64,000 nucleotides of DNA from Candidatus Omnitrophota bacterium (GCA_015233405.1 JADFXT010000003.1:118591-182590), one strand, 5' to 3'. Positions 9,620-45,690 are shown, counted from the first letter of the stretch. Notes: generated by a model from the sequence alone, not told the origin. Numbers and translations: made by a program.

Positions 9620-9674
9620 CTTAAAAGACTCCATGAAAAAAGGGCTGTTATTCTTTTCTTAACAGGCTCAATTT

Positions 9675-10133: not shown

Positions 10134-10454
10134 CTATCCTCTCACCATCACCAACATCATTTTAAACCGTTCGATGGCTTTAAGCGCGTGGGGCTTGTTC
10201 GCCGGCATGATGATCAAATCCCCGGCCTTGAGGCTGGACGGTTTCCCTTCGATCTTGACCTCAGCTTTTCCGTCGAAAACATAGACCATCGCATCAAATG
10301 GCGCGGTGTGCTCGCTTAAACATTGCCCCTTGTCGAAAGCAAAAAAAGATATCGTGCCCTTATCGTTACGGATAATTTCCTTGCTGACGATAGAATCATC
10401 CTGATAATCTACCAATTTGCCCATTTCCTGCGCCTGCCCGATGATATTGACCAT
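10134..10454 (-). CDS. Cupin domain protein
   Basis: Cupin motifs (HTAPFDAMVYVFDGKAEV... PANKPHAL). I prefer the start at MVNIIGQ (ATG 10454), which has a perfect AGGAGG SD. This start removes the overlap with kdpD. Confidence 0.7.
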   Translation of the reverse strand: MVNIIGQAQEMGKLVDYQDDSIVSKEIIRNDKGTISFFAFDKGQCLSEHTAPFDAMVYVFDGKAEVKIEGKPSSLKAGDLIIMPANKPHALKAIERFKMMLVMVRG

Positions 10455-10464
10455 GATTTCCTCC

Positions 10465-12958: not shown

Positions 12959-12966
12959 AAAACTCC

Positions 12967-22565: not shown

Positions 22566-23677
22566 ATTTTCTTGACCACCTCTTTAAGGCTTTCACAAAC
22601 GTATTCGACCTGCTCCTTGGTGATATGAGGGAACATCGGAAGAGACAATATCTCGTCGGAAATCCGTTCAGACACCGGAAGGTCGCCTCTCTTATAGCCT
22701 GCATCTTTATAAGCTTCCTGAAGATGAATAGGAATCGGATAATGGATCAAGGCACTGACGCCTTTTTCTTTAAGCTTATCAACGACCTGGTCACGATTCT
22801 TAAGGATCCTGACCGCGAAGGTTTGAAACGTGTGTGTGCGGCCTTCTTTCATTTTAGGCGCAATCACGCCATCGACATTCTTAAGAAGCTCGCAATAATA
22901 CACGCCCATTTTGTTACGCATGGCATTCCATTCATCCAAATATTTGAGTTTAGCGTCGAGAACAACCGCCTGGACCGTATCCAACCGTGAATTAAACCCC
23001 TTGATTTTATGATCATAACGCCCGGTGCGTCCATAATCCCGAAGCATCCGTGCCAAAGTATTGACATCATCGTCGCTGGTAACAATCATCCCGCCGTCGC
23101 CAAAACCGCCGAGGCCTTTTGTCGGATAAAAACTAAAACAGCTGACTTTGCCCAAAGACCCGATCCTTTTACCCTGATATCTCGCCCCGTGTGCCTGGGC
23201 CGCGTCTTCAACAACCGTGATCCCATGCTTTTTGGCGATCGCACAAATTTCCTCTATATTCCCGGCCTGGCCGTAGAGATGGACCGGCATGATCACCTTA
23301 GTTTTCTTGGTAATGGCCGCTTCCAACTTCTTGGAATCCATATTGTAGGTTTCATCTTCCACATCCACAAAAACCGGTTTAGCGCCGGTGTAGGAAACGC
23401 AAAGGGCGGTCGCGATAAACGTAAACGATGGTAAAATGACTTCATCTCCAGGCCCGACGTGAAGCGCGCCTAATGCCAGATAAAGGGCGTCCGTCCCAGA
23501 GTTAACGCCGATCCCATATTTTGATTCGCAATATTTCGCAAAATTTTCTTCAAAGGATTTGACCTGCGGGCCTAAAATGAAACTCCCTTTTTCAAAAACC
23601 TCTTTTAATCCGCGGTCGACTTCCTCTTTAACAATTTTATGTTGCTGGCTAAAATCTACAAATGGCACATTCATCAT
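22562..23677 (-). CDS. DegT/DnrJ/EryC1/StrS-family PLP sugar aminotransferase
   Basis: Family-typical N-terminus, and FSFYPTKGLGGFGDGG with the Schiff-base Lys at aa 187. Confidence 0.85.
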   Translation of the reverse strand: MMNVPFVDFSQQHKIVKEEVDRGLKEVFEKGSFILGPQVKSFEENFAKYCESKYGIGVNSGTDALYLALGALHVGPGDEVILPSFTFIATALCVSYTGAKPVFVDVEDETYNMDSKKLEAAITKKTKVIMPVHLYGQAGNIEEICAIAKKHGITVVEDAAQAHGARYQGKRIGSLGKVSCFSFYPTKGLGGFGDGGMIVTSDDDVNTLARMLRDYGRTGRYDHKIKGFNSRLDTVQAVVLDAKLKYLDEWNAMRNKMGVYYCELLKNVDGVIAPKMKEGRTHTFQTFAVRILKNRDQVVDKLKEKGVSALIHYPIPIHLQEAYKDAGYKRGDLPVSERISDEILSLPMFPHITKEQVEYVCESLKEVVKKI

Positions 23678-31399: not shown

Positions 31400-31516
31400 A
31401 AATCCGAAACACGAAGCACAAAATACGAAACAAATCCGAAATCAGAAAATTTTAAATATTGGATTTTGCATTCTTGCTTTCCTTGTTTCGAATTTCGACA
31501 TTCGAATTTCGGATTT
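31400..31516. repeat. Palindromic intergenic element, family 2 (AAATCCGAAA / TTTCGGATTT arms)
   Basis: The 32-nt arms 31400-31431 and 31485-31516 are imperfect inverted repeats. An inner AAATCC...GGATTT pair sits at 31432-31466. The element shares the 16-mer AAATCCGAAATTCGAA with 35228-35243. Confidence 0.7.
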
Positions 31517-32690
31517 AAAGGATATTTTTGACTCGCAAAAACTCCTCGACTACTTCCGCGACGTAATCGCAGTTTTTCAGCTCAATGTCTTGATGTATGC
31601 CGATATGTGTCCCGTTATTCGAGCAATATTCCGCTTCCGGAAAATCCCCGAGCTTATATCCCATAAATGCGTAACCGGCGCACTGAGTCGGAATGGAGTA
31701 GAACAAATTCCGCGAATCAATGCCAGAGGCTTCCAGATACTGAACAAATTCATTTTTAGTAAATCCCGCGTTTTCCTTGACGATGATGGCAAACGCATGC
31801 GGACCGACTTTTTCGTGCGGTTCCTCTTTTGTATAAATAAAATATTTGCTGAACCGTTCGAATTTCTTAGAAAGATACTTTAAATTCCGCCGGCGCTTCT
31901 CCAAAATCTTCTTAAAAATAGCGACGTTGCCCAATCCGACCGCCGCCTCAAGCTCGTTCATCTTGGCGGAAAATCCTATTCTACGAAATTCAAATTTATT
32001 GACTATGCCGTGATTGCGAAGCGAGCGTAACACTTCCGCCATTTTGGGATTATTCGTAATCACAATGCCGCCTTCGATGGTCGTGATAATATGCGCGGCA
32101 TAAAGACTAAACGCCGCCATGTCGCCGATGGTCCCCAGCATCTTTCCTTTATATTCCCCGCCGTGCGCCTCAGCCGTATCCTCAATGATAAAAAGTTTGT
32201 ATTTTTTTGCGATCTGCTGAATCTTATCCATCTGGGCGGGTTTTCCCATCAAATGGACCGGCATGATCGCCCGTGTTCGTTTGGTAATGGCCGCCTCTAT
32301 TTTATCCGCGTCGATATTAAGTGTTTCGCGTTTCACGTCGACAAAGACCGGTTTAAACCCGGCCTGAAAAACCGCACTGGCTGTCGCCACAAACGTCAAG
32401 GCGGGGACAATGATCTCATCGCCACGCTGGGCGCCAAAATCATAAAGCGTTGCACACGCCAGGGCATTGGCATCCGTGCCGCTTGAAACGGCCACGGCTT
32501 CTTTGACGCCAAAGATCGCAGCGAATTTCTGTTCGAATTCCTGAACATATTTGCCGCGCGTTACCCATTTCGACTTTAGCGCTTCATTGATCAACTTGAC
32601 CGCTTTGTCGGTAATAGAAACAGTTCCAAACGGAACTTTATATTTGGCCTTGGCTGAAAATGTCGAGCTTTTATTATGATCAATCTTCAA
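31515..32690 (-). CDS. DegT-family PLP enzyme of the ColD/RfbH type (probable nucleotide-sugar 3-dehydratase); His replaces the Schiff-base Lys
   Basis: DegT-fold motifs are present, but the active-site segment reads FSLYAAHIITTIEGG (His200, codon at 32091-32093). The in-window paralog has FSFYPTKGLG at the same place. Confidence 0.7.
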   Translation of the reverse strand: MKIDHNKSSTFSAKAKYKVPFGTVSITDKAVKLINEALKSKWVTRGKYVQEFEQKFAAIFGVKEAVAVSSGTDANALACATLYDFGAQRGDEIIVPALTFVATASAVFQAGFKPVFVDVKRETLNIDADKIEAAITKRTRAIMPVHLMGKPAQMDKIQQIAKKYKLFIIEDTAEAHGGEYKGKMLGTIGDMAAFSLYAAHIITTIEGGIVITNNPKMAEVLRSLRNHGIVNKFEFRRIGFSAKMNELEAAVGLGNVAIFKKILEKRRRNLKYLSKKFERFSKYFIYTKEEPHEKVGPHAFAIIVKENAGFTKNEFVQYLEASGIDSRNLFYSIPTQCAGYAFMGYKLGDFPEAEYCSNNGTHIGIHQDIELKNCDYVAEVVEEFLRVKNIL

Positions 32691-32709
32691 TTTCGTAACT
32701 CCTTTCGTC

Positions 32710-33417
32710 CTAAAATTTCAAAACACTTTGCGCTTTTTGATAGCGCTCAGGGGTTCCGATATCGTAAAACGGCTTATCTGTGATAAAACCGAAAAACTGT
32801 TTGCCGAGAAGCGTCGGGAAAAAATTAGTCTCAAGAGAAAACCTGTCTTCCTGGGGCATGAGCTTAAAGACTTCCGACGACAAACAATAAATCCCCGCAT
32901 TCACATAAGAAGGCCCACCGACTTGCTTTTCCTTAAACGAAACAATTTCCTGATGGTCATTAAGCGTAATGCCGCCAAAATCCCTGCTGTCGTCGGTTTT
33001 TGATACGGCCAAACACGCTTGGGCATTTTTCTTTAAGAAATAATCCAAAAACTCCTCTAGATCAAGCGCGCAAAAAGAATCTCCATTGAATACGAAAAAT
33101 GGATTGCCTTTAACTAAGGGTTGGGCATTTTTGATAGCACCTCCCGTCCCGAGCGGCGTCTCTTCCCGGGAAAAAACAATATCCACGCCTGGAAAATGGC
33201 CAGCATAATGATTTTCTAAAATATCAGCTTTGTATCCCGTGCACAAGACAATATTACGGATTCCTTGGTTTTTGAGATATCCGATGAGAATATCCAAAAA
33301 CGGCTTGTCATTGACCTTTGCGAGGACTTTTGGAGCGCCTTGCGTGACCGCCTGAAGACGCTGGCCGAGCCCTCCGCACAGGATGAGTGCTGATATTTTG
33401 CTTAGGTTTTTTTCCAT
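32710..33417 (-). CDS. Sugar-1-phosphate nucleotidyltransferase (HddC-like)
   Basis: ALILCGGLGQRL, PLGTGGAI and the ~235-aa size match the HddC/short NTP-transferase family. I prefer the ATG at 33417 over the TTG at 33420. Confidence 0.75.
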   Translation of the reverse strand: MEKNLSKISALILCGGLGQRLQAVTQGAPKVLAKVNDKPFLDILIGYLKNQGIRNIVLCTGYKADILENHYAGHFPGVDIVFSREETPLGTGGAIKNAQPLVKGNPFFVFNGDSFCALDLEEFLDYFLKKNAQACLAVSKTDDSRDFGGITLNDHQEIVSFKEKQVGGPSYVNAGIYCLSSEVFKLMPQEDRFSLETNFFPTLLGKQFFGFITDKPFYDIGTPERYQKAQSVLKF

Positions 33418-35197
33418 CAAGGCTCTTTCGTTGATAAATAACCGATTTGCTCGTCGTAGCCTTCATCACATAATTCTGGGCGACAAACCAGAGCATATCG
33501 TTAAATTTGATCCTATTATTGTCGTTGAGGAAATAGACATCATTATATTTCGCGCTAAACACTTTCGGCAGAACAATATATTGCGGCGGATTTTCTTTTA
33601 AATCCGTCATCAGCTGTTGATGCCACCGATCATTAAGCCAAGACAATGTTGCCATGGGAAAACGCCCGTACACCGACCTTTGCGCTAGAAAATAAAGCGC
33701 GCCTTCTTCAGGGTACATAAAAATCCGGTCTTTATCGCTAATAAATTTTTGCATCATGGCCGTCAAGGATTCCAAGTCCTCGGCTTGAACAGCTGGAACG
33801 ACCATCCCCTGGGCTCTCAAAATCCGTAAAGGCCTTTCGACAGTCGGCGCAGCTTTCAAACAAATTTGCTGACCTAGAAGGATTTTCGTCATCGGGAATT
33901 TTTTATAATAGCGGATGAGCGCAAAGCCTAAAGAAGAGCCGATAAATAAAAACATTAAAACAGGAATGACCATTTTCCTCAGGCACAACGGAACTTCTTG
34001 CTTCGCTGGCTCAACAGTCCCAAATAAATCTGGTGTCGTCTCTCGACGGGATTTGGAGGTTTTTAATGGCAAATCCGCCGGCTGATTGAGGATGGTCTTC
34101 TCTGGACATAACGCGTGTTTGAAATCGCTCAGAAAAAAAACAAAAAATCGTTCCAAAAGATAAAACAAGATAATTTTCTCCGGCTGAAGTGCCATAAGAA
34201 ATCCGGCCCCTTCCTTATGGCCAAGTGCCAGGACAAACAAGGTCGCCCCATAACCCGCCAACGTCACTAAAATCGCGTGGTCTTTGGTAACACGATTATT
34301 TTTAAACTCCTGGTAACAAAAAATACTAAAAGCCAGATAGAGATATGCGGGCGTCAAGAATTTAAAATGCGGATTTCCCGGAATCAGCCACGCTATAAAC
34401 TCTAACGCTGTTTTAGGATATGTCCCGGGAGCCATGACCTTTGCCGCACCCAAGATAACCGTCCCCAACGAATTAAGGTAAGCGACCAACGATCCCGTGA
34501 GGATCAAATAAAAAACATACGGCAGAAAAATAAAAAGAATGCCACGGCCAAAAACGTCAAAATGTTCTCGGAAAAGTTCTCGCGAAATGATCTTGAACAT
34601 ATAGGCAAAACATAGCCCTAGAACAATCCCGACAAAAGCACAAACGCCGATCTCCCAATTTGAGAGAAATGCGCAGGCTGTGAGAATTCCCGCCGATAAC
34701 AACCACCCCTTTTTTTGTTTCTGAATATATTTTACGGCAGAGTAAACAATCCATAAGCCAAAAACATATCCCAATCCGTCTGCACAGGTAAAAATACCCT
34801 GAGGAAATGTCCTGGCAATCAAAACAACCATGCAAAGTGCATAAACAAATTTTGTCTTAAAGACATCTTTAGCGATCAAGACACAGAGCAAAAATGTCAG
34901 GACATTGCTGATATAAAAATAAAGCGAAAGCGTCGGAATATTGACCCCAAAGAATTTCATAACAAGGGCCGGCAAGTATAAGGTCAGAGGGCCATACAAA
35001 TGAAAGAAATCCCGGTAAGGCACCAGCCCTTTTAACACGGCATCTACGCCGGGAAGAAATAAGCCGTATTGATAAAGATTCATTTCCCCATTGAGATAAT
35101 TAGGGAATATGCAGATAAAGACCGTGAACAGGGCCAAGGCAAGAGCATTCCCATAAGTCGGTAAACCATAGAGCCAGTCTGTCTTTATTCTTTTCAT
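33308..35197 (-). CDS. Large polytopic membrane protein, paralog B (GT-C/ArnT-like candidate)
   Basis: Paralog of 26891-28543. The last ~38 aa (SLDGKKPKQNISTHPVRRARPASSGGHARRSKSPRKGQ) overlap the next gene out of frame and extend past the paralog's homologous end. Confidence 0.6.
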   Translation of the reverse strand: MKRIKTDWLYGLPTYGNALALALFTVFICIFPNYLNGEMNLYQYGLFLPGVDAVLKGLVPYRDFFHLYGPLTLYLPALVMKFFGVNIPTLSLYFYISNVLTFLLCVLIAKDVFKTKFVYALCMVVLIARTFPQGIFTCADGLGYVFGLWIVYSAVKYIQKQKKGWLLSAGILTACAFLSNWEIGVCAFVGIVLGLCFAYMFKIISRELFREHFDVFGRGILFIFLPYVFYLILTGSLVAYLNSLGTVILGAAKVMAPGTYPKTALEFIAWLIPGNPHFKFLTPAYLYLAFSIFCYQEFKNNRVTKDHAILVTLAGYGATLFVLALGHKEGAGFLMALQPEKIILFYLLERFFVFFLSDFKHALCPEKTILNQPADLPLKTSKSRRETTPDLFGTVEPAKQEVPLCLRKMVIPVLMFLFIGSSLGFALIRYYKKFPMTKILLGQQICLKAAPTVERPLRILRAQGMVVPAVQAEDLESLTAMMQKFISDKDRIFMYPEEGALYFLAQRSVYGRFPMATLSWLNDRWHQQLMTDLKENPPQYIVLPKVFSAKYNDVYFLNDNNRIKFNDMLWFVAQNYVMKATTSKSVIYQRKSLDGKKPKQNISTHPVRRARPASSGGHARRSKSPRKGQ

Positions 35198-35227
35198 AAG
35201 CGCATCGCCTTTAAAGCCTTAAAATCT

Positions 35228-35308
35228 AAATCCGAAATTCGAAACAAATTTTAAATTTTGAAAGCCCAAATTTTTAATTTTCGAATTTATTTCGGATTTC
35301 GAAATTCG
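35228..35308. repeat. Palindromic intergenic element, family 2
   Basis: AAATCCGAAATTCGAAAC (35228-35245) is inverted against TTTTCGAATTTATTTCGGATTT (35278-35299), followed by the CGAAATTCG palindrome. Confidence 0.65.
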
Positions 35309-35335
35309 TATTTCATATTTTCAATCTTAAAACTG

Positions 35336-36319
35336 TTACGTTGGTTGATAAAAAATAATTTGCGTCCCCAGGTTTTCAAATTTAAACGGCACAAAAAGAA
35401 GTTTTCGCAGTGTCTGCCGGACTTTCCGCTGGTTTTCCGGAGGAACGAATAACAGCATAAAGCCGCCGCCACCGGCGCCCAACAATTTTCCGCCGATTGC
35501 TCCCGATGCCCGGGCTGCTTTATAAATATCATCGATATGCGATGTTGAAATTTTGTCCGAAAGGGTTTTCTTAATGCGCCAAGATTCATGCAAAAGCTTT
35601 CCGAATCGACGGATATTGCCCTTTTGTAGAATATCTGTGGCTTCAAAGACCATGTCATACATCGCCTTAAGTTCGGCTTTTTTATTAGGGATATTTTGTA
35701 TCTGATGCGCCGCGATCGTCGAGGCGATCCGGGAAAAACCGGTGAAATACAGCATGAAATGGTTTTCCAATTCCTTGATGCGCTCCGGAGCGATGGTCAC
35801 ACTTTGCAGCTGAAAATCATTCTTTCCGTCAAACTGGATGAGATTAAGACCGCCGAACGCCGCTTGGATCTGGTCCTGACAACCGACATTTTCCCGGCAC
35901 ATATTTTGTTCAATATAGATCGCTTCCTTAGCCAATTGCCGCTTGGTCGTCATTTTTCCTTTTAAAGCATAAAGGGCATTTAAAAGCCCGACGGTAAATG
36001 AGGAACTCGACCCAAGTCCTGTGCGGGCAGGCAGATCGCCATCGTGATGGATTTCCAAGCCTTCTTTGATTTTTAAAAACCGCATAACTTCACGCACCGC
36101 CGGGTGATCAATTTCATCAATGGCTTTGATATGTTCCATTTTGGAATAAATAATACGGGACTTGTAGCCAAAAAAGGGCGGCAAATACCGGCACGTGATG
36201 TAACAATACTTATTGATGGTCGTGGCAAGAACAGCCCCCTTATTATCAGCAAACCATCCCGGATAGTCCGTGCCTCCTCCAAAAAAAGAAACGCGAAACG
36301 GTGTGCGGCTGATGATCAT
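35336..36319 (-). CDS. GHMP-family sugar kinase (HddA-like, heptose-7-phosphate kinase type)
   Basis: MIISRTPFRVSFFGGGTDYP N-terminus, GHMP motif PARTGLGSSSSF, 327 aa. Confidence 0.75.
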   Translation of the reverse strand: MIISRTPFRVSFFGGGTDYPGWFADNKGAVLATTINKYCYITCRYLPPFFGYKSRIIYSKMEHIKAIDEIDHPAVREVMRFLKIKEGLEIHHDGDLPARTGLGSSSSFTVGLLNALYALKGKMTTKRQLAKEAIYIEQNMCRENVGCQDQIQAAFGGLNLIQFDGKNDFQLQSVTIAPERIKELENHFMLYFTGFSRIASTIAAHQIQNIPNKKAELKAMYDMVFEATDILQKGNIRRFGKLLHESWRIKKTLSDKISTSHIDDIYKAARASGAIGGKLLGAGGGGFMLLFVPPENQRKVRQTLRKLLFVPFKFENLGTQIIFYQPT

Positions 36320-36353
36320 AATCGTGACTCCTTTTTATCGACGAGATTAAGTG

Positions 36354-37832
36354 CTAATCTTTCGGGTAATTGTTCCGAACAAGTTTGACCATACACATCT
36401 TTTTAATATTGTTGACCGCCTCAAGCCCAAAACGTTCTTCAATTCGCGCGAGGTATCGCGGGTCTGTAAAATAATTATCAAAAGCCTCGTCGCGGAACTT
36501 AAGGACTTGTGGGCCGGACAAATATTTGGTGGCCAGCGGTAAGCAATCTTTACTGAACTGGGAATACGCGCTCCAGCTTTTCGGAAGCGGCGTTCCCTGT
36601 TGGACGGCATCCGCATAAAGCTTCGAGCCCGGATAGGCCATGGCGCAATAAAGGTTCGCGTACGCACAATTGAGTTCCTTGGCCAGATCAAGGGTTTCCT
36701 GCATGGTTTCCATATCATCATCGGGAAGCCCGAAAATAAAATTCGAAACGACCTCAATCCCAGCGTCGTGCGTCATGGCAATGACCCGCTTGATGTCGTC
36801 TTGCGTGAATCGTCCTTTCGTCACCCCGTCGCGGACCTTTTTACTTCCAGCTTCAATCCCATAAGCAAGCCAGTTGATTCCCGCCTGCTTCATTTTTTTA
36901 AGCATATGTTCCTTGACCGAATCAATTCGTCCGTAAGCCCAAAAATTTAATTTCTCGCCCAAGCCTTTGGCAATGATCCCGTCACAAATCGCCTCCACAT
37001 GGCTCCATTTGGAGACAAACAGCTCGTCGAGAATTTTAATATTTCTCATCCCATAATGTTTAACCAAATATTCGACTTCCTCGACCACTTGCTGTGGCGG
37101 ACGATACCGAATTCCGGGCTTGCCGAAAATCGAATTGATGCAGCAAAAATCGCAATGAAATGGACAGCCTAAGCTGGTATAAATCACGGCATACGGCTGA
37201 CGCTCTTTAATGTGCGAAAAACAATGCCAATTGTGCGCGCGATACTTATCCATCGGCAAGAGATCCCACGCCGGCATGGGCAAAATCCCTAAGTCATCGA
37301 TATTTTCCGCTCGAGGATTAGAAAAAATTCTCCTATCTTTCCGGTACCAAAGTCCTTTGATGCAAAATTCATCGCCAATGTCTTTCTTTGACTTTAATGC
37401 GGCAACCAGCTCAAGATGCGTCGTAAATCCTTCGCCCTCGACAACAAAATCAGCAGCCTCTTCTTTCATCGTTTGTTCGGGCAAAGCCGAAGGGTGAAGC
37501 CCGCAAAGAACCGTTGGGATATCTTGAGCGACTTTTTTTATTTCTTGTAAAAAAAGACCGGCGCCCGGCATATTGATCGTCGAGGCTGACGGATTTGTCC
37601 CGGATACAACCACGGAAACCAAAACAGGCTTAAGCGTCACTGCACGTTCTATGGTTTCTTCAACACTTAAATTCTCCGCCTCTGCATCAATAACAGAAAC
37701 CGTGGCGCCACTTTCACGCAGATACGCGGCCATTAAAATAAGCCATAACGGCGGCTCGATCCCCGAAAAATCTTCGCTTAACGCCTGAAAGACTTTCTTT
37801 TGATTATTGGGCTTGATAAGAACGATATCCAT
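36354..37832 (-). CDS. B12-binding-domain radical SAM enzyme (class B)
   Basis: N-terminal B12-binding-like Rossmann domain, followed by the radical SAM cluster motif CPFHCDFC (CxxxCxxC). Confidence 0.8.
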   Translation of the reverse strand: MDIVLIKPNNQKKVFQALSEDFSGIEPPLWLILMAAYLRESGATVSVIDAEAENLSVEETIERAVTLKPVLVSVVVSGTNPSASTINMPGAGLFLQEIKKVAQDIPTVLCGLHPSALPEQTMKEEAADFVVEGEGFTTHLELVAALKSKKDIGDEFCIKGLWYRKDRRIFSNPRAENIDDLGILPMPAWDLLPMDKYRAHNWHCFSHIKERQPYAVIYTSLGCPFHCDFCCINSIFGKPGIRYRPPQQVVEEVEYLVKHYGMRNIKILDELFVSKWSHVEAICDGIIAKGLGEKLNFWAYGRIDSVKEHMLKKMKQAGINWLAYGIEAGSKKVRDGVTKGRFTQDDIKRVIAMTHDAGIEVVSNFIFGLPDDDMETMQETLDLAKELNCAYANLYCAMAYPGSKLYADAVQQGTPLPKSWSAYSQFSKDCLPLATKYLSGPQVLKFRDEAFDNYFTDPRYLARIEERFGLEAVNNIKKMCMVKLVRNNYPKD

Positions 37833-37859
37833 AATAAATATTCCCGTCTAAAACAAGAT

Positions 37860-37960
37860 TGTCATCCCCGCGTAAGCGGGGATCCAGTAAATGTTTTAAG
37901 ATCCTGAAACGCCACGAAATTTACCCTATATCCTGGATTCCCGCTTACGCGGGAATGACA
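37860..37960. repeat. Composite palindromic element, family 1, copy A
   Basis: TGTCATCCCCGCGTAAGCGGGGATCCAG ... 45 nt ... CTGGATTCCCGCTTACGCGGGAATGACA. Each arm is itself a hairpin. Confidence 0.85.
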
Positions 37961-37981
37961 GACAGGAGGAAAAATACTAAC

Positions 37982-38914
37982 TTAAATGTTCGCGTACTGA
38001 TTGCGCTTGATGACCTGATACCCTTTGATAAGTTCCTTAAGCCCGTCGGGTAAAGAGACCTGCGGCTTAAATCCCGTCTTCTCTATCTTTGCGTTACTAA
38101 CGATATAATCACGCTTGTCCGGGTCTTCGCCGATCGCGGATTCCACAAAATAAAAATCCGGAATCAGTTTCTTGATCTCCTCGCAGAGTTCCATCTTGCT
38201 TAAATTCGCATCGCTTAAGCCCACATTATATGGCTCATTTTTCATGGCGCTAAAATTCTTCAAACTATGGATAAACGCACGGGCCACGTCGCGGGTATGG
38301 ATATAATTACGCTTAAAATGCGCCTCAAATAAGACGACATAACGATCATAAACAGCGCGGTACGTAAAATCGTTGACCAAAAGGTCGAGGCGCATCCGCG
38401 GGCTTATGCCGAAGGCTGTTGCCAGACGAAGCGTAATGGCATTACCTGACGATAAAAGGGCATTCTCGGCGTCAACTTTAAGCTTGCCGTATAAAGAGAT
38501 CGGCCTTAAAGGGGTTTCTTCCGTACAGAATTTTCCTTTTTCTCCTATACCATAACCGCTATTGGTCGTCGGAAAAATGATCATCTGGTCCTTGCTGCGC
38601 AACTTTAAGATCATTTCAATAGCGCCGAGCAAGATTGCCTGGGCGGCCTCAGGCTCTTTTTTACACAAGGGCGCACCGGTCAAACACGCTAACGGAAAAA
38701 TCGCATCGGCATTCTTTATGAGGCGCGCCAAAAGTTCTTTATCCCGCGTGTCTCCTCGGATGATCGTCAATTTTGGGTCATAGCAGCAGTCCAATAAAGA
38801 CGATTGATTGTACATAAAATTATCCAATACCGTCACTGTATGATTTTCTTTTAAAAGTTCCGGCACCATCACTGACCCTAAATACCCTGCCCCACCTGTC
38901 ACTAAAATGTTCAT
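37982..38914 (-). CDS. NAD(P)-dependent sugar epimerase/dehydratase/reductase (extended SDR)
   Basis: VTGGAGYLGS Rossmann motif and YGKLK catalytic pair, 310 aa. Confidence 0.75.
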   Translation of the reverse strand: MNILVTGGAGYLGSVMVPELLKENHTVTVLDNFMYNQSSLLDCCYDPKLTIIRGDTRDKELLARLIKNADAIFPLACLTGAPLCKKEPEAAQAILLGAIEMILKLRSKDQMIIFPTTNSGYGIGEKGKFCTEETPLRPISLYGKLKVDAENALLSSGNAITLRLATAFGISPRMRLDLLVNDFTYRAVYDRYVVLFEAHFKRNYIHTRDVARAFIHSLKNFSAMKNEPYNVGLSDANLSKMELCEEIKKLIPDFYFVESAIGEDPDKRDYIVSNAKIEKTGFKPQVSLPDGLKELIKGYQVIKRNQYANI

Positions 38915-38918
38915 TGCA

Positions 38919-39854
38919 TTACTCCTTCTTTTTATTTAAAAACCACTGATACGTTTCTTTAATGCCTTCCTTTAGTTCCTTCTTGGCTTTCCAACCCAAA
39001 TGCGCGATGCGGCTATTATCCAACAATTTCCTCATCGCTCCATCGGGCTTAGAGGAATCAAAAACTAATTTTCCTTTAAATCCCGCCGCATTTGCAATCA
39101 GACTTGCCAAATCCTTAATCGACACATCCGACCCGCAGCCGATATTGATAACCGCTTCTTCATCATAATGCTCCATCAAAAATGAACACGCCTGGGCAAA
39201 ATCATCCTTAAACAAAAATTCTCGCCGGGGATTTCCAGTTCCCCAAATGACGACTTCGGGCTGATTATTCTTCATGGCGTTCGCGAATTTGCCAATCAAC
39301 GCACCCATCACATGCGCCGTCTCTAAATTCACATCGCTTCCGGGACCATAGACGGTTGGTGGAATAGCTACGATGGCATTTAATCCATATTGCCGATGGA
39401 ACATCTGGGCTAATTTTATACCGGCAAGCTTCGCTAGCGAATACGCTTCGCTGGTCTCTTCCATCTTTCCCGTGCCGATATATTCTTCTTTCATAGGTTG
39501 ATCACAAACCTTGGGATATACACACGAGCCTGCCAAATAAAGCAATTTCTTGACGCCAAACTTTTGTGCGGCGTAAATGATATTGTTTTGGCTCTCGAGG
39601 TTGTGATACATAAATTCCGCACCCATCTTCTGGTTGGCTTCGATCCCGCCGGAGCGCGTGGAACCTAAGAAGACATAATCCGGCCGCTCAGAGGCGAAAA
39701 AGCCATAAACAGAAGCCTGAATGGTTGTATTGATTCCTATTTTCGACGACGAAATGATATGGGTATAACCGCTGGCCTCGAAATACTCCACCAGCGAGTT
39801 TTCGATGATATCATTATGCCCGACGACAAATATTTTGGAATTTTTATCCATCAC
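38919..39854 (-). CDS. GDP-L-fucose synthase / ColC-like SDR with atypical N-terminal nucleotide-binding motif
   Basis: Collinear with Fcl (GSCVYP, YSLAKLAGIK, WGTGNPRREFL, FDSSKPDG, YQWFL). The GxxGxxG position reads GHNDIIE. Confidence 0.75.
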   Translation of the reverse strand: MMDKNSKIFVVGHNDIIENSLVEYFEASGYTHIISSSKIGINTTIQASVYGFFASERPDYVFLGSTRSGGIEANQKMGAEFMYHNLESQNNIIYAAQKFGVKKLLYLAGSCVYPKVCDQPMKEEYIGTGKMEETSEAYSLAKLAGIKLAQMFHRQYGLNAIVAIPPTVYGPGSDVNLETAHVMGALIGKFANAMKNNQPEVVIWGTGNPRREFLFKDDFAQACSFLMEHYDEEAVINIGCGSDVSIKDLASLIANAAGFKGKLVFDSSKPDGAMRKLLDNSRIAHLGWKAKKELKEGIKETYQWFLNKKKE

Positions 39855-39862
39855 ACACCCAC

Positions 39863-39962
39863 TGTCATTCCCGAAATTTTTTACCTGCCGGCCGGCAGTG
39901 CAGGTCGGGAATCCATACTTTCAACCCTTGTGGTTCCCCGACTAAAGCATTCGGGGATGACA
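39863..39962. repeat. Composite palindromic element, family 1, copy C (variant)
   Basis: TGTCATTCCCGA...TCGGGAATCCA ... TGGTTCCCCGACTAAAGCATTCGGGGATGACA. The left hairpin loop carries a CTGCCGGCCGGCAG palindrome. Confidence 0.75.
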
Positions 39963-39965
39963 ACT

Positions 39966-41006
39966 CTATTTTATAACCTTCTTAACCGCTTCGACGATGT
40001 CTTTGACTCCCGGATAGAATGCATCCTCGAGCGTATACCCGCTCGGCGTTGGAATATCAGGAAACGCGACCCGAACCGGCGGCTTCTTTAAGTATGAAAA
40101 TCCTTTTTCCGCGACGATCGCAAGCACCTCGGCTGAGAATCCGCCGGTCTTCCAACTCAAATCCGCCATGACCAGCTTGCCGGTTTTCTTGACCGAATTT
40201 AAAATCATTTCTTCATCCAGGGGTTTGAGTGTGCGCGGGTCAATCACCTCGACGTCAACACCTTCTTTTGCTAACTCATCCGCTGCTCGCAAACTTTCCG
40301 GCACCATGTGTGAGACCGCGACGATCGTCACATCTTTTCCTTCCCGACGGATAACGCCCTGCCCAAAAGGAATGGCATAAATTTTTTCCGGCACATAGCC
40401 TTGGTGTTTATAGAGCCAGCGCTGTTCGATAAAAATAACCGGATTATTGTCCGCGATGGCCGTGATCAAAAGTCCTTTAGCATCATACGCCGTCGTCGGC
40501 ATCACAACTTTCAATCCCGGAATATGTACAAATAACGACTGAAGTGCCTGAGAATGCTGCGCCGCCGAGCCCCAGCCTCGTCCGATGCAGGTGCGAATGA
40601 CCAAAGGAATCGGGACCTGGCCGTTAAACATATAGCTCCACTTGGAGGCGTGATTAACGATCTGGTCCATGGCCAAAAGAAGAAAATCCGGACGGTTGTG
40701 AATATAAACGGGGCGCATGCCAGCCATGGCCGAGCCCACGGCAATACCCATTAACCCATTCTCGGAAAGGGGCGTGTCAAAAACACGCTTGATGCCATGT
40801 TTTTTATAAAGCCCGTCGGTAGAACCAAACATTCCAGCCGGGTCGTTGATGCCTTGTCCCATCACATAAACGCGCGGGTCATTGGCCAAAGCCTGGTCCA
40901 AGGCTTCACGCAAAGCGTCGCCATAGGAAAGTTTACGCACATCTTTCCCCTTGTCCGCATCAAAATGCGGCTCTTGGCGTTCCATATGTAATTTTGTCCA
41001 GGGCAT
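39966..41006 (-). CDS. TPP-dependent 2-oxoacid dehydrogenase E1 component, beta-subunit-like
   Basis: Transketolase pyrimidine-binding and C-terminal domains (RVFDTPLSENGLMGIAVGSAMAGMRP...). Confidence 0.85.
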   Translation of the reverse strand: MPWTKLHMERQEPHFDADKGKDVRKLSYGDALREALDQALANDPRVYVMGQGINDPAGMFGSTDGLYKKHGIKRVFDTPLSENGLMGIAVGSAMAGMRPVYIHNRPDFLLLAMDQIVNHASKWSYMFNGQVPIPLVIRTCIGRGWGSAAQHSQALQSLFVHIPGLKVVMPTTAYDAKGLLITAIADNNPVIFIEQRWLYKHQGYVPEKIYAIPFGQGVIRREGKDVTIVAVSHMVPESLRAADELAKEGVDVEVIDPRTLKPLDEEMILNSVKKTGKLVMADLSWKTGGFSAEVLAIVAEKGFSYLKKPPVRVAFPDIPTPSGYTLEDAFYPGVKDIVEAVKKVIK

Positions 41007-41018
41007 TTAATGAGTCCT

Positions 41019-41095
41019 TAATTTATGGAGCGAAGCGAACATAAATTAGACGGACGAATTAATCCCGCGTTTCCTTGCGAAGCAAGGTTGCGGGA
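41019..41095. repeat. Two intergenic hairpins between the E1 alpha and beta genes
   Basis: First hairpin: TAATTTATG-N12-CATAAATTA (41019-41048). Second, nested hairpin: TCCCGC..CCTTGC-GAA-GCAAGG..GCGGGA (41063-41095). Confidence 0.6.
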
Positions 41096-42070
41096 CTACT
41101 TCGCAAACAAATATTTTTCCAACTCTTCATTTTTCGGCAGCGGACTGTCTTGGCCGAACTTAAAGGCTTCTTCGACTTCCTCGTCGATCTTCTGATAAAT
41201 AGCGTCAAGCTTTTCTCTCGACGATATCTTTTGCTTAATTAGATATTTCTCCAAGCTCGCTAATGGATCGCGCATCGTTTTTTCATCCAGGATATCTTCC
41301 GGATTACGGTAAAGCTTGGCCTGCGGATCACCGGCTCCCGCATGCGCTCGCCAACGCTGGACATTAAACTCCAAAAAATACGGGCCTTTGCCTCGACGGG
41401 CGTGGGTAACAGCAGCCTCCGCCGCTGCATAGACTTTAAAAATATCCATCCCGTCCACGGTCTTAGCAGGAATATCAAACCCTAAAGCGCGGGTGGCTAT
41501 CGGCATCTCGGCCTGACGGACTTGTATCGGCGAGCAGACAGAATATTTATTGTTCTCACAAACAAAAATAACAGGAAGATTATGGAGTTTCGCCCAGTTC
41601 ATGCTCTCCTGCAAAACACCCTCTTCCGAGGCCGCATCGCCGAAAAAGCTGACCGCCACATTCTTTTTCTTTTGCATGACAAACGCCATGGCCGCTCCGA
41701 CCGCGTGGGGAATAGATCCTGCCACGATCGCCGACGAGCCATAATGCCCGACGGACGTGTCGATCAAATGCATGGAGCCGCCCCGGCCTTTCGCGCAGCC
41801 GGTTTCCTTACAGAACAATTCCGCAAAAAGCGCCTTTAAGTCCCCGCCTTTGGCCAAATAATGCCCGTGCCCGCGGTGGTTACTAAAGATCATATCGCTT
41901 GTTTTAAGATGTGCAGAGACCCCGACGGACACAGCTTCTTCGCCTAAGCATAAATGGACCGGCGTTTTCATCTGGTCTTCATGATAATGCTTTTCGATCT
42001 TTAGCTGGGTCTTACGGATACGCGCCAAAGATATCAATAACTTAAATAATTTTTCTTTAGATAAACGCAT
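41096..42070 (-). CDS. TPP-dependent 2-oxoacid dehydrogenase E1 component, alpha-subunit-like
   Basis: TPP-binding motif FFGDAASEEGVLQESMNWAKLHNLPVIFVCENNKYS, 324 aa. Confidence 0.85.
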   Translation of the reverse strand: MRLSKEKLFKLLISLARIRKTQLKIEKHYHEDQMKTPVHLCLGEEAVSVGVSAHLKTSDMIFSNHRGHGHYLAKGGDLKALFAELFCKETGCAKGRGGSMHLIDTSVGHYGSSAIVAGSIPHAVGAAMAFVMQKKKNVAVSFFGDAASEEGVLQESMNWAKLHNLPVIFVCENNKYSVCSPIQVRQAEMPIATRALGFDIPAKTVDGMDIFKVYAAAEAAVTHARRGKGPYFLEFNVQRWRAHAGAGDPQAKLYRNPEDILDEKTMRDPLASLEKYLIKQKISSREKLDAIYQKIDEEVEEAFKFGQDSPLPKNEELEKYLFAK

Positions 42071-42089: not shown

Positions 42090-43034
42090 TTAAGAATGAT
42101 GGACTTTAAACCATTGCACGGTCTTTGTTAATCCCTCGGCAAGGGGAACTTGCGGTGTCCACTTAAGATATTGTTTCGCTAAGGAGATGTCAGGCTTGCG
42201 CTGTTTGGGGTCGTCCGTCGGTAAAGGCTCAAAAATAATCTTACTTTTAGAGTTGGCTTCTTTAATAACCAATTTAGCGAATTCCAAAATCGTAAATTCA
42301 TCCGGATTACCGATATTAACGGGGCCGGAGATCGAGGAATAAAGGAGCCTGACAATACCATCGATCAAATCCGAATAATAACAAAATGACCTGGTTTGTT
42401 TCCCGTCGCCATAAACCGTAATATTTTTTCCATGAAGCGCTTGATAAATAAAATTTGGAACCACACGGCCGTCGTTAATACGCATCCGCGGCCCGTAAGT
42501 ATTAAAAATACGGACAATCTTGGTATCCATTTTATGAAAACGCCGATAAGCGAACACAATGGCCTCGGCAAACCGCTTGGCCTCGTCATAAACACCGCGC
42601 GGGCCGATGGGATTGACATGCCCCCAATAGGTTTCTTTCTGCGGATGTTCCAACGGGTCCCCATAAACTTCTGACGTCGACGCTAAAAGATACCTGGCCT
42701 TCTTAAGCTTGGCCAACCCTAAAGTATTGTGCGAGCCCAACGACCCGACTTTTAATGTTGGAATAGGATGCTTCAAATAATCCACCGGGCTTGCCGGCGA
42801 GGCAAAATGAAGCACATAATCGACCGGCCCTGCGATGCGGAACTCTTTCGAGACATCGTGCTTGATAAACTCAAAATTCTTTTCTTTTTTCAAATGCTTG
42901 ATATTATTCAGATTTCCGGTGATAAGGTTATCGACGGCAATGACCTTAACCCCATCACTTAAAAGCCGGTCGCTCAAATGGCTTCCCAAGAAACCAGACC
43001 CGCCGGTGATGACTGCAACTTTCTTTCTGGACAT
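42090..43034 (-). CDS. UDP-glucuronate decarboxylase (UDP-xylose synthase-like SDR)
   Basis: [18 protein letters not shown], 314 aa, collinear with UXS. Confidence 0.85.
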
Positions 43035-43051
43035 ACAAACTCCTTCTATTC

Positions 43052-44353
43052 TTAAAATCGAATAACTTTTTTGTTCTGATTTTTTCCGTAAACATTACGG
43101 ATATCAAAAATACACTGGGCATGTTTTAGAATAAGATCATAATCCACCGCCGTATGGTCAACGGCGATAAGAACGGCATCATATCCACAGACCGCCTTCG
43201 GTCCAAGCACAACAGATTCCTGATTGATCTTGCCGATCTTTAGATATGGGATCACCGGGTCAAAATAATCCACAGCGCATCCGTGAGCCTTAAGATGCTC
43301 GATGAGTTTTAACGACGGCGATTTCCGGAGGTCCTTGACGTCTTTTTTATACGTCACACCCACAACAAGCACCCGGGCTTTCGACAAAGTTTTCTTCTGA
43401 AATGTTAAGATTTGCCCCAGGCGTTCGACCGCATACATCGGCATCGCAGCATTAATGTCCGCCGACAATTTGATAAATTTTGAGTTAAACCCATACCGTT
43501 TGGCTTTCCAATATAAATAAAGCGGGTCTTCGGGGATACAATGCCCGCCGACGCCTAAGCCCGGATAAAACGGCATGAACCCGAACGGTTTGGTTTTCGC
43601 TGCCTCAATGACCTCCCAGATATCAATGCCCATCTTATGGCACATCATGGCCACTTCATTGATCCAGCCAATATTGACGATACGAAAAGAATTCTCCAAG
43701 AGCTTCGTCATTTCCGCGGCCTTGGCCGTCGAGACAAGATGAACGTCTTTAATGATCTTTTCATAAAGAGACTTAGTCAGCTGCCCGCTCTTAAGACTTA
43801 GTCCGCCGACGACCTTAGGGATCAACGTCACGTCATATTTCTTATTGCCGGGATCAATTCTCTCCGGAGAAAACGCCAGAAAGAAATCTTTCTCCGCCTT
43901 TAGCCCTCTTTTTTCCAGCTCGGGACGAATGAGCTCCTCGGTCGTGCCCGGATAGGTCGTACTTTCCAAGACGACCAAAGTATTTTTCTTAAGATGCTGG
44001 GACACGGCTTTAACGGCACTGAGAATAAAAGAAATATCGGGTGTATATTTCCGCTTTAATGGCGTTGGCACGCAGATGATAATGACATCCGCATCTTTAA
44101 TGACGGAAAAATCCGTCTGGGCCCTTAAAAAACCTTTTTTAACAACGCCCGCCAACTCTGACGTAGGGATATCGAGAATATAGCTTTTCTTCTGATTTAC
44201 CTGATTGACACGATCGACGTCATTATCAAGCCCAACGACCGTAAATCCTCTTTTCGCAAAACTAACGGCCAAAGGTAGTCCAACATACCCAAGCCCCACG
44301 ACGGCGATCTTGGCTTTATGCAAAGAAATTTTCTTTTCTAGAATGGTTGACAT
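43052..44353 (-). CDS. Nucleotide-sugar 6-dehydrogenase (UDP-GlcNAc/ManNAc dehydrogenase, WbpA/TviB/WecC-like)
   Basis: [12 protein letters not shown], catalytic GGHCIPEDP, 433 aa. Confidence 0.8.
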
Positions 44354-44355
44354 CT

Positions 44356-45690
44356 CTAAGCTCTTTCTCTATTAAGCCCACGGCCGATGCCGTAATACTC
44401 AAAGCCCAAATCTTCCATTTTCTGATGGTCGTAAAAATTACGGCCGTCAAAGAGCATCGGATGGCGCATCAAACTTTTGATTTTGTGAAAATCCAAGTGT
44501 TTAAATTCTTCCCATTCCGTCAACAAAAGCAGACAATCACATCCCTTGGCAAGCACGTACGGGTCTTGACAAAAACTGACATGAGGGATAACTTTTTTGG
44601 CATTGTCAACAGCCTGCGGGTCATAGGCCTTCACTTTTGCGCCTTCATGCTGAAGAATCCGTATGATATCAGCCGACGGGGCGTTTCGCATATCGTCGGT
44701 GTTCGGTTTAAACGCAAGCCCTAAGACCCCGATGACCTTGTTCTTTACGATCCAAAGCTTGTCTTCCATTAATTTAATGAAATTTTGTTTTTGTTCTTCA
44801 TTAATACGCCGGACTTCCTCTAGAAGATGAAACTTATATCCGCTTTCTTCGCTAAGACGAATAAAGGCATCCACATCCTTCGGGAAACAACTTCCGCCAT
44901 AACCAATACCCGCGTCCAGGAAACTACGCCCGATGCGTTTATCCAGCCCCATGCCTTCTGCCACTTTTAAAACATCCGCGCCAACCTCGTCACAGATTCT
45001 AGATAGTGCATTAATAAATGATATCTTTGTTGCCAAAAAAGAATTCGACGCGTGCTTGATAAGCTCGGCGGAGTTAATGTTGGTCACAACCATCTTAGGA
45101 TTGAGTGGCGCGTAAATTTCCCTCAAAAGATTTTCCGCTTTCTTGGACTCAACGCCGATGACCACACGGTCCGGGTTCATAAAATCTTCCACAGCGGAAC
45201 CCTCTCGCAGGAATTCCGGATTAGAAGCGACATCGAAATCCAGGGTGATCTTTTTTCCTTGTTTATATTTTTTCGGAAGGTTAAGCCGGATGGTGCGCGC
45301 AACTTTCTGTCCGGTCTCTGCCGGAACGGTTGACTTCTCAACGATCAATTTGTAGGAGTCCATATTTGTAGCAATTTGGCGCGCGACATTTTCGACATAC
45401 GTCAAATCCGCATCCCCATTTTTCTTAGATGGCGTCCCGACGGCAATAAAAATTACGGTCGATTTTTGAACCCCTTCTTTGATAGAGGTCGTAAAAGAAA
45501 TCCGTTTGCTCTTTAAGTATTTTTTAAGAAGAGGCTCTAAGCCCGGCTCATAAATCGGCGTATGCCCCTGCCTCATTTTTTTAACTTTGTCCTGGTCCAT
45601 ATCAATACAAACAACCTCATGTCCGATATGGGCCAGACATACGCCAGTCACCAGCCCGACGTACCCTGAACCAATAATAGCAATTTTCAT
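44356..45690 (-). CDS. ugd: UDP-glucose 6-dehydrogenase
   Basis: IIGSGYVGLVTG, GGSCFPKD, 444 aa. The start overlaps the lptD stop by 1 nt (TAATG). Confidence 0.9.
   Translation of the reverse strand: MKIAIIGSGYVGLVTGVCLAHIGHEVVCIDMDQDKVKKMRQGHTPIYEPGLEPLLKKYLKSKRISFTTSIKEGVQKSTVIFIAVGTPSKKNGDADLTYVENVARQIATNMDSYKLIVEKSTVPAETGQKVARTIRLNLPKKYKQGKKITLDFDVASNPEFLREGSAVEDFMNPDRVVIGVESKKAENLLREIYAPLNPKMVVTNINSAELIKHASNSFLATKISFINALSRICDEVGADVLKVAEGMGLDKRIGRSFLDAGIGYGGSCFPKDVDAFIRLSEESGYKFHLLEEVRRINEEQKQNFIKLMEDKLWIVKNKVIGVLGLAFKPNTDDMRNAPSADIIRILQHEGAKVKAYDPQAVDNAKKVIPHVSFCQDPYVLAKGCDCLLLLTEWEEFKHLDFHKIKSLMRHPMLFDGRNFYDHQKMEDLGFEYYGIGRGLNRERA

Follow-up and report, generated by a model that had tools for sequence, protein, structure and literature searches.

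Which sugar is assembled when a thiamine diphosphate (ThDP)-dependent enzyme and a B12-type radical S-adenosylmethionine (SAM) enzyme are encoded among nucleotide-sugar genes? This question is raised by a locus within a 64,000-nucleotide stretch of DNA from a Candidatus Omnitrophota bacterium (GCA_015233405.1, JADFXT010000003.1:118591-182590), hereafter the window, in which nine minus-strand open reading frames (ORFs) encode E1 alpha- and E1 beta-type ThDP subunits, a GDP-fucose-synthase/ColC-like (Fcl-like) epimerase-reductase, an SDR (short-chain dehydrogenase/reductase) of the extended type, a B12-binding-domain radical SAM enzyme, an HddA-type kinase, a polytopic membrane protein, an HddC-type guanylyltransferase, and a ColD-type sugar 3-dehydratase. 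The coordinates and families that an initial annotation, made from the sequence alone, had given for these ORFs were confirmed by comparing the window ORFs with Pfam and NCBIfam profiles. The answer that we consider most probable, with a probability of roughly 0.6, is that the cassette turns an activated heptose into a 3-deoxy, carbon-branched cell-surface sugar by means of the ThDP and radical SAM enzymes.

Conservation of the gene set and of its ThDP enzyme

By searching with the radical SAM protein (36354-37832, minus strand), 80 loci were obtained from species-representative genomes, 40 of them with full 10-kb flanks, and were compared by tblastn and ORF clustering. The carriers comprise Omnitrophota, Nitrospira, Planctomycetota, Chloroflexota, Elusimicrobiota, Verrucomicrobiota, Bdellovibrionota, Myxococcota, cyanobacteria, many Alphaproteobacteria (including cultured Magnetospirillum strains and Azospirillum doebereinerae), a Coxiella-like endosymbiont, and archaea (Methanoperedens and others). 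The radical SAM homologues, which belong to a family with more than 7,800 matches at E <= 1e-20 in a search limited to 8,000 candidates, were 55-72% identical across phyla, and their partners recurred in shuffled order. Among the 40 full loci, a ThDP enzyme was present in 39, a ColD-type dehydratase (a DegT homologue of either of two His-bearing subfamilies) in 34, the kinase in 33, the SDR in 30, the nucleotidyltransferase in 27, and the Fcl-like gene, an accessory member, in 25. This recurrence of the combination across phyla is far beyond chance; the genes, which the initial annotation had read as a single set, form one conserved unit and do not fall apart into separate pathways lacking synteny.

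A second sample was found via the SDR and consisted of 80 metagenome loci, of which the 21 of at least 15 kb were counted; a ColD-type gene and an Fcl-like gene occurred in 15 each, a ThDP enzyme in 14, and a radical SAM homologue in nine. Some loci, such as L091 and L117, lacked a radical SAM homologue while having the SDR, the ColD-type gene, and a ThDP enzyme; others, of a simple make-up (L089 and L100), had no ThDP enzyme. There thus appear to be three tiers, namely plain tailoring of the Campylobacter jejuni type, the same with 3-deoxygenation and a ThDP enzyme added, and finally the radical SAM enzyme on top of these, and the window cassette appears to belong to the third. Since the radical SAM gene is almost never found without a ThDP enzyme whereas the reverse is not true, this distribution suggests that the ThDP product is either the substrate of the radical SAM enzyme or something that it requires.

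In the Coxiella-like endosymbiont (L031, NZ_CP084737.1, approximately 9000-13400), the cassette is present as a copy in decay, where the SDR and radical SAM genes are followed by ORFs of 170, 95, and 146 aa, the first of which is an N-terminal fragment of a GHMP kinase, and then by the Fcl-like gene. This hints that relatives of Coxiella once made the cassette sugar; the C. burnetii O-antigen literature that we examined made no mention of radical SAM, transketolase, or E1 genes.

In the window, the ThDP enzyme is encoded by an E1 alpha gene (41096-42070, minus strand; PF00676/E1_dh, 1e-69) and an E1 beta gene (39966-41006, minus strand; PF02779, Transket_pyr, and PF02780, Transketolase_C). The alpha subunit scored 313 bits with TIGR03182, below its 394-bit cutoff, and its best solved structure was human pyruvate dehydrogenase (PDH) E1-alpha (184 bits), while the beta subunit, which co-occurs with an alpha subunit in the related loci, scored 348 bits with the PDH E1-beta subfamily model NF006667, above the cutoff of 321 bits. 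Neither E2 nor E3 (lipoyl, 2-oxoacid_dh, and E3 domains) was detected among the window ORFs of at least 150 aa up to 61.9 kb, all but the last three. Together with the near-constant presence of a ThDP enzyme in the related loci, this bears out the earlier view of the orphan pair as the ThDP enzyme of a sugar pathway and not a metabolic dehydrogenase. The GC content of E1 beta (0.51) and E1 alpha (0.49) exceeded that of the other locus genes (0.42-0.47), which could reflect a separate acquisition and would fit repeated swaps of the ThDP enzyme type.

Such swaps were evident from the 40 full loci, in which the slot was occupied by an E1 alpha/beta pair in 21 (at no more than 10 kb from the radical SAM homologue), by a split transketolase in 11, by a YerE/acetolactate synthase (ALS)-like enzyme in six, and by a miniature E1 in one. 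Because loci of the E1 type and of the transketolase type are intermingled on the radical SAM tree, the enzyme type must have been replaced repeatedly while the role was kept. The YerE/ALS-like variant scored 329 bits with 8RPH and 285 bits with 5AHK, as against 241 bits with the best true acetolactate synthase; we take 5AHK to be PpYerE and, judging by its date, 8RPH to be JanthE. PpYerE and JanthE are named as the solved YerE-like structures in a 2025 review (PMC12247030). According to the same review, the ThDP superfamilies known to accept ketones and branch sugars are only the decarboxylase/YerE-like, transketolase, and alpha-KADH2 ones, and it is to these three that the YerE-like, transketolase, and E1 types of the slot belong. 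YerE transfers a pyruvate-derived acetyl group onto the C4 ketone of CDP-3,6-dideoxy-4-keto-glucose, and the same branching has been proposed for the E1-like AviB1/B2 and Pau11/12 in antibiotic pathways (PMC9306805, PMC4753412).

Two further forms of the slot were noticed. In L070 (3370-4629), L072 (1195-2431), and L081, it holds a miniature two-subunit ThDP enzyme composed of an E1_dh fragment of about 210 aa with a GDMSAETG...DNG cofactor motif and a beta-like subunit of about 196 aa with Transket_pyr only, devoid of the C-terminal transketolase domain; L073 (5724-6260) has the beta-like subunit only, and the radical SAM gene of L070-L073 and L081 is a paralogue with 40-42% identity. The miniature pair may be a minimal sugar-branching carboligase. 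In L053, L069, L076, and L079 (Nitrospira) and L034 and L035 (archaea), a YerE-like ThDP enzyme is accompanied by a class I/II aminotransferase and by radical SAM paralogues numbering two to four, and the archaeal loci have no sugar-nucleotide genes nearby. The radical SAM and ThDP enzymes may constitute a module of their own.

Predicted route from an activated heptose to a branched sugar

The SDR of the cassette (37982-38914, minus strand) aligned over its whole length with PDB 6VO6/6VO8 (400 bits, 57% identity over 308 residues). We take 6VO6, named by its depositors 'putative sugar-nucleotide epimerase/dehydratease', to be the GDP-heptose C4 dehydrogenase Cj1427 of C. jejuni. When aligned to 6VO6, its active-site stretch reads T-N-S, in place of the T-D-E or T-x-E of 4,6-dehydratases, and it is probably a close relative of the Cj1427-type dehydrogenase as thus identified. 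Cj1427 oxidizes C4 with alpha-ketoglutarate as the oxidant and retains the C6 hydroxyl (PMC10680097). Given a Cj1427-like SDR, the lack of a 4,6-dehydratase is to be expected, and the prediction becomes a 3-deoxy rather than a 3,6-dideoxy sugar. Indeed, no window SDR reached the cutoff of the Gmd model (best, 83 bits versus 415), and the Cj1427-like dehydrogenase is the sole cassette SDR preceding the dehydratase step, with no GDP-heptose 4,6-dehydratase. Of the 3-deoxy or 3,6-dideoxy heptose or hexose that had been put forward at first, the 3-deoxy heptose was therefore retained and the 3,6-dideoxy and hexose forms were dropped, the likely intermediate predicted from the sequences being GDP-3-deoxy-4-keto-D-glycero-heptose.

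The dehydratase gene (31515-32690, minus strand) encodes a DegT-family protein (PF01041, 6e-104) in which His200 aligns with the Schiff-base Lys of perosamine synthase (FSFFGNK versus FSLYAAH). Because His replaces the catalytic Lys, the protein is assigned as a 3-dehydratase dependent on pyridoxal/pyridoxamine 5'-phosphate (PLP/PMP), and the original designation 'ColD-type' was right. Its length of 391 aa agrees with ColD chains (390 aa) rather than with those of the iron-sulfur E1 dehydrase (RfbH/DdhC, 437 aa), a comparison based on length, the alignment to the E1 dehydrase covering residues 17-228 only. In the 80 related loci, His occupied the catalytic position in 50 of the 55 DegT homologues, and the five bearing Lys were second-copy aminotransferases. 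With Cj1427 and a C3-dehydratase from C. jejuni HS:5, the Raushel group obtained GDP-3-deoxy-4-keto-D-threo-heptose (m/z 616.08; PMC10680097), which indicates that the predicted intermediate is chemically accessible with these two families.

For the activation of the heptose, the GHMP kinase (35336-36319, minus strand; PF00288 and PF08544), a putative heptose-7-phosphate kinase, found its best NCBIfam model in HddA (NF049969, 149 bits versus a 600-bit cutoff) and its best solved structures in heptose kinases (4USK/4USM, 3K85, and 4N3O; 117-129 bits). The nucleotidyltransferase (32710-33420, minus strand; PF00483) likewise matched best with HddC, the heptose-1-phosphate guanylyltransferase (NF049965, 178 bits versus 300), and, among solved structures, with 5XHW/6JQ8, a '6-deoxy-D-mannoheptose pathway protein' (142 bits). 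A GmhB-like heptose-1,7-bisphosphate phosphatase of the HAD type (20378-21028, minus strand; NF006506, 146 bits versus 178), which passes the HAD-IIIA subfamily model, lies 10 kb off in the same orientation and probably feeds the pathway; its counterpart stands within the cassette in seven of the 40 full loci. These HddA/HddC-type matches and the resemblance of the SDR to 6VO6 uphold the earlier proposal of a GDP-activated, heptose-derived sugar. Moreover, an L-2-hydroxyglutarate oxidase homologue (FAD oxidoreductase) was encountered in five full loci (L009 at 1434-2639, L013, L018, L051, and L056), the representative exceeding the equivalog cutoff (NF008726, 325 bits versus 299). It fits a role in recycling the by-product of a Cj1427-type dehydrogenase, in support of a heptose start; in the window itself, no such oxidase was found.

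The Fcl-like protein (38919-39854, minus strand; NF047922, 364 bits versus a cutoff of 500) scored 264 bits with Escherichia coli GDP-fucose synthetase (1BWS) and keeps the equivalents of Cys109, Tyr136, Lys140, and His179, the position of Ser107 being Gly followed by Ser. By these residues, it looks like a true 4-keto epimerase-reductase. No cupin-type epimerase turned up in the window, although no search was aimed at one.

On these grounds, we propose the following route. The HddA-like kinase, the GmhB-like phosphatase, and the HddC-like guanylyltransferase would produce GDP-heptose, with GmhA encoded elsewhere, perhaps on another part of the 186-kb contig. The Cj1427-like SDR would then oxidize C4, with alpha-ketoglutarate as the oxidant if it works like Cj1427, and the ColD-type enzyme would remove the C3 hydroxyl to yield GDP-3-deoxy-4-keto-heptose. 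Following the logic of YerE, AviB1/B2, and KbDH, the orphan E1 pair would transfer a two-carbon acyl anion, most likely derived from pyruvate, to form a tertiary alcohol at C4, and the branched product might be modified by the radical SAM enzyme through C-methylation, radical dehydration, or C-C ring closure. If C4 is made a tertiary alcohol in this way, the Fcl-like enzyme must either reduce a side-chain ketone or reduce C4 in a parallel, unbranched route; alternatively, the ThDP enzyme may act elsewhere on the molecule, as considered below. The first three steps rest on close homology to characterized enzymes and on conserved gene content, and the fourth on conserved association and the precedent of other branched-sugar pathways, whereas the radical SAM and Fcl-like steps and the order of the steps are inferred.

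Such a cassette points to an undescribed higher sugar of the cell surface, with carriers that include phyla having few cultured members (Omnitrophota, Nitrospira, Planctomycetota, and Methanoperedens). If the proposal is true, it would constitute a natural route to 3-deoxy-heptoses, which have so far been obtained only from mixed C. jejuni enzymes in vitro; sugar branching of the E1 or transketolase type, so far tied to antibiotic pathways, would enter surface-glycan synthesis; and the radical SAM enzyme would be the first of the B12 type known to us that is paired with a ThDP enzyme, probably on a GDP-sugar. Published work already offers enzymatic preparations of the starting substrate and of the first two intermediates, and the miniature ThDP enzyme of the relatives could be a lead for engineering enzymes that form tertiary alcohols.

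The radical SAM step and competing readings

The radical SAM protein, which has the domain layout of class B (cobalamin-dependent) radical SAM methyltransferases, matched PF02310 (57 bits) and PF04055 (71 bits), and its CxxxCxxC motif (C223, C227, and C230) was invariant in an alignment of 14 homologues. The leading curated families, HpnJ (160 bits) and BchE (150 bits), fell far short of their cutoffs. For the AlphaFold model (mean predicted local distance difference test score of 90), the best structural match was AprD4 (template modelling (TM) scores of 0.74/0.80, 22% identity), also the best sequence match among solved structures, followed by the methyltransferases TsrM, MgmA, CysS, and TokK and the non-methylating OxsB. 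AprD4 is a radical SAM 1,2-diol dehydratase acting on an aminoglycoside sugar. The C-methylation that had initially been ascribed to the radical SAM enzyme was thus not borne out, neither this best structure nor the two best families being methyltransferases, and from the similarities at hand its chemistry could be methylation, dehydration, or C-C bond formation. Several related loci have at least two radical SAM paralogues, a pattern that is common for successive methylations and proves nothing.

Several observations weigh against the proposed route. The kinase, the nucleotidyltransferase, the phosphatase, the Fcl-like protein, and E1 alpha all miss the NCBIfam equivalog cutoffs; most of the proteins lie below them, and these models alone do not name any of them as a known enzyme. 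A tblastn search with a cassette GmhA gave no match in the window, an absence that had been pointed out at the outset together with that of a Gmd-type 4,6-dehydratase. In structure, the radical SAM enzyme is nearest to a dehydratase, a kinship that would suit another sequence of steps, and the C4-keto enzyme residues of the Fcl-like protein sit badly with a C4 tertiary alcohol in the same molecule. In five loci (L002, L004, L034, L035, and L041), the radical SAM and ThDP enzymes occur with no sugar-nucleotide genes nearby. Finally, the O-polysaccharide of Azospirillum doebereinerae GSF71, a cultured carrier, contains only rhamnose and glucosamine (PMC7372237), and hence the cassette product is not its main O-antigen sugar.

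The kinship to a dehydratase and the residues of the Fcl-like protein would be accommodated if the radical SAM enzyme, acting like AprD4, dehydrated GDP-heptose at its exocyclic C6-C7 diol and so produced an aldehyde or a ketone, to which the ThDP enzyme would add two carbons to give a nonose, with the ColD-type and Fcl-like enzymes finishing the ring as in colitose (3-deoxy, L-configuration, C4 reduced). Besides the AprD4 match in both structure and sequence and the retained epimerase-reductase residues of the Fcl-like protein, the radical SAM and ThDP enzymes are the tightest pair of the cassette, and aldehydes are the usual acceptors of ThDP carboligases. On the other hand, L091 and L117 have the SDR, the ColD-type gene, and the ThDP enzyme without a radical SAM gene, which indicates that the ThDP acceptor needs no radical SAM step; the identity to AprD4 is low; and the window protein matches the B12-binding domain well, while AprD4 needs no cobalamin. 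We therefore consider this order of events doubtful.

It is less likely still that the sugar is not a heptose at all and that the cassette starts from mannose or another hexose 1-phosphate, its kinase and nucleotidyltransferase merely resembling HddA and HddC. The sub-cutoff scores of all activation enzymes, the absence of GmhA from the window and from most related loci, and a ManC-like gene nearby would agree with such a start. Against it stand the 57% identity of the SDR to 6VO6, presumably a GDP-heptose-specific dehydrogenase, the heptose kinases and HddC-type protein that were the best solved matches, and the GT9 heptosyltransferases of the window, which imply a heptose supply in the genome. 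In addition, some cassettes contain GmhB or GmhA themselves, the latter in seven of the 40 full loci, with a representative that matched phosphoheptose isomerase models best while remaining below their cutoffs.

Within the preferred reading, that of a 3-deoxy, C4-branched heptose, the product could in principle be a caryose-type sugar, i.e., a carbocyclic or ring-fused nine-carbon sugar (4,8-cyclo-3,9-dideoxy-nonose) closed by a radical C-C bond, although we regard this specific identity as unlikely. C1-C7 would stem from the heptose; C8-C9, attached to C4, would be contributed by pyruvate via the ThDP enzyme; and closing the C7-C8 bond would fall to the radical SAM enzyme. The gene set fits the caryose pattern closely, in that position 3 would be deoxygenated, the hydroxyls at C6 and C7 retained, a methyl group placed at the end of the chain, and a C4 reductase not obligatory, and the biosynthesis of caryose was described as not known in a 2022 review (PMC9092360). 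When the L047 radical SAM protein, from a betaproteobacterial locus, was searched, its top 120 homologues, most of them nameless, included none named as Burkholderia or Trinickia caryophylli, a result that neither supports nor excludes the link. If it were true, such sugars would be widespread in uncultured phyla. For bradyrhizose, the homologues of the radical SAM protein of a Xanthobacteraceae locus (L075) likewise named no Bradyrhizobium, which lends a link no support; the bradyrhizose locus is described as 11 sugar-modification genes, including a dTDP-glucose dehydratase (PMC4743980). Erwiniose as a heptose plus a methyl group was also considered and ruled out, because published accounts have erwiniose arise from a C5 keto acid and a 3,6-dideoxyhexose.

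Alternatively, the radical SAM enzyme, together with a class I aminotransferase in some loci, might build or methylate an unusual alpha-keto acid, from which the ThDP enzyme would transfer a longer acyl branch, as ErwE does with 4-hydroxy-2-oxopentanoate. This tailoring of the donor would account for the pairing of radical SAM and ThDP enzymes, with or without the aminotransferase, in a few loci of archaea and bacteria devoid of sugar genes (L034 and L035) and for the Nitrospira loci in which an aminotransferase, a radical SAM enzyme, a YerE/ALS-like enzyme, and a second radical SAM enzyme stand in a row. The window, however, has no such aminotransferase, and we know of no B12 radical SAM enzyme acting on free keto acids. 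As for the donors, YerE-like enzymes accept C4-C8 keto acids (PMC9306805), whereas KbDH, the only E1-type sugar-branching enzyme tested in vitro according to the review cited above, was limited to pyruvate (PMC12247030). Taken together, we judge a tailored donor to be quite improbable. As for a chance juxtaposition of a common dehydrogenase E1, a radical SAM enzyme with no connection to it, and a sugar pathway of the colitose or heptose type, for which the PDH-like scores of both E1 subunits and their slightly raised GC content might speak, it is effectively refuted by the comparative data, namely gene content conserved across many phyla and a ThDP role retained through swaps of enzyme type, as well as by the absence of E2/E3 from the window.

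Genomic surroundings and comparison with known systems

The minus strand holds almost all substantial ORFs of the window, and from lptD (45690-47894) to the GmhB-like gene it forms a co-directional, packed glycan locus in which no gap exceeds 149 nt; terminator-like sites were no more frequent than expected in the window, and promoter-like sites did not delimit transcription units. The ninth cassette gene (33308-35197, minus strand; PF13231) encodes a PMT_2 (GT-C) glycosyltransferase-like polytopic membrane protein with about seven hydrophobic segments. It does lie in the minus-strand order that had been reported, between the kinase and nucleotidyltransferase genes. Nevertheless, a homologue was found in none of the 80 genome loci, hence it is no conserved member and looks like a lineage-specific insertion into the cassette. 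The overlap of its 3' end with the start of the nucleotidyltransferase gene by 113 nt suggests that the insertion was recent. A second PMT_2 gene lies at 26891-28543, and an ArnC-like membrane GT2 enzyme of the undecaprenyl phosphate route was not found in the window. The GmhB-like, ManC-like, and two GT9 genes of the initial annotation are all present, but the ManC-like and GT9 genes recur only in a few closely related Omnitrophota loci and do not belong to the conserved set. A second DegT-family gene (22562-23677), with PseC and WecE-like as its best families, retains the catalytic lysine; it accordingly appears by sequence to be a normal sugar aminotransferase of the downstream GT2/GT9 part, outside the conserved cassette.

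Directly upstream of the cassette (42090-47894) are lptD, two nucleotide-sugar dehydrogenases, and a UXS/ArnA-like SDR, a block that recurs in Omnitrophota and Planctomycetales relatives and was not seen in the other phyla sampled. All four genes are present in L001 and L008, lptD is missing in L070, and two ORFs separate the block from the cassette in L073. A second polysaccharide block at the start of the window (480-7962) comprises two GalE/RmlB-like SDRs (one above the GalE cutoff), proteins resembling a Wzy_C O-antigen ligase and a Wzz/tyrosine kinase, an export protein of the Wza type, and a beta-barrel porin, with fmt, kdpDCBA, and priA standing between it and the main glycan locus.

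Consistent with the initial annotation, a literature search, whose scope did not extend to the 2024 genome-mining survey of branched-sugar clusters (Krug et al.), found no characterized pathway that matches the cassette. Its nearest counterpart is the capsular heptose tailoring of C. jejuni, with HddA/HddC, Cj1427, the HS:5 C3-dehydratase, and Cj1428-type C4 reductases, to which the Cj1427-like SDR, the ColD-type His dehydratase, and the Fcl-like reductase correspond here. In C. jejuni, however, the 3-dehydratase naturally follows a 4,6-dehydratase and leads to 3,6-dideoxy sugars, the 3-deoxy route having been reached only by mixing enzymes in vitro, and the heptose pathways contain neither a ThDP nor a radical SAM enzyme, whereas the cassette has both. 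For want of a 4,6-dehydratase, the window does not belong to the HS:5 GDP-3,6-dideoxyheptose pathway.

The branching step recalls yersiniose-type pathways (YerE/YerF, and ErwE for erwiniose), in which a ThDP enzyme sets an acyl branch on the C4 ketone of a 3-deoxy-4-keto nucleotide sugar for lipopolysaccharide, and some variants of the cassette use a YerE-like enzyme in the same manner. Those pathways employ a CDP-hexose along with a 4,6-dehydratase and the iron-sulfur dehydrase system E1/E3, in contrast to the probable GDP-heptose, ColD-type dehydratase, retained C6 hydroxyl, E1 alpha/beta ThDP enzyme, and radical SAM enzyme of the cassette. As to the ThDP enzyme itself, the absence of E2/E3 sets the pair apart from the pyruvate and acetoin dehydrogenase complexes, and orphan E1 alpha/beta pairs without E2/E3 are described for AviB1/AviB2, Pau11/Pau12, and KbDH-alpha/beta (alpha-KADH2), a likeness drawn from descriptions, in which the transfer of an acetyl group from pyruvate to a keto-sugar has been proposed or shown. 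The latter pairs belong to specialized-metabolite clusters of Gram-positive actinomycetes and act on 6-deoxy sugars, their sugar substrates being dTDP-activated, whereas the pair described here stands in a surface-glycan locus near lptD in a candidate phylum of the Gram-negative type.

With the colitose pathway (Gmd, ColD, and ColC), the cassette has in common a GDP-sugar, a His dehydratase of the ColD type, and an Fcl-like enzyme of the ColC type in which the epimerase/reductase residues are conserved. Membership nevertheless fails, given that there is no Gmd and that the heptose would be oxidized by a dehydrogenase, leaving C6 hydroxylated. Lastly, the radical SAM enzyme shares with AprD4, HpnJ, GenK, and Fom3 an N-terminal B12-type domain and a radical SAM core; Fom3 has a nucleotide-linked substrate and the other three have carbohydrates as theirs, and none of the four is, to our knowledge, known to act on a GDP-sugar or with a ThDP enzyme. 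It differs from them in its low identity to AprD4 and in family scores far below every curated cutoff. In summary, the first half of the proposed route recalls the heptose logic of C. jejuni, the branching recalls that of yersiniose and AviB, and the dehydratase and Fcl-like enzyme recall colitose, familiar enzyme classes being joined here in a conserved and widespread combination.

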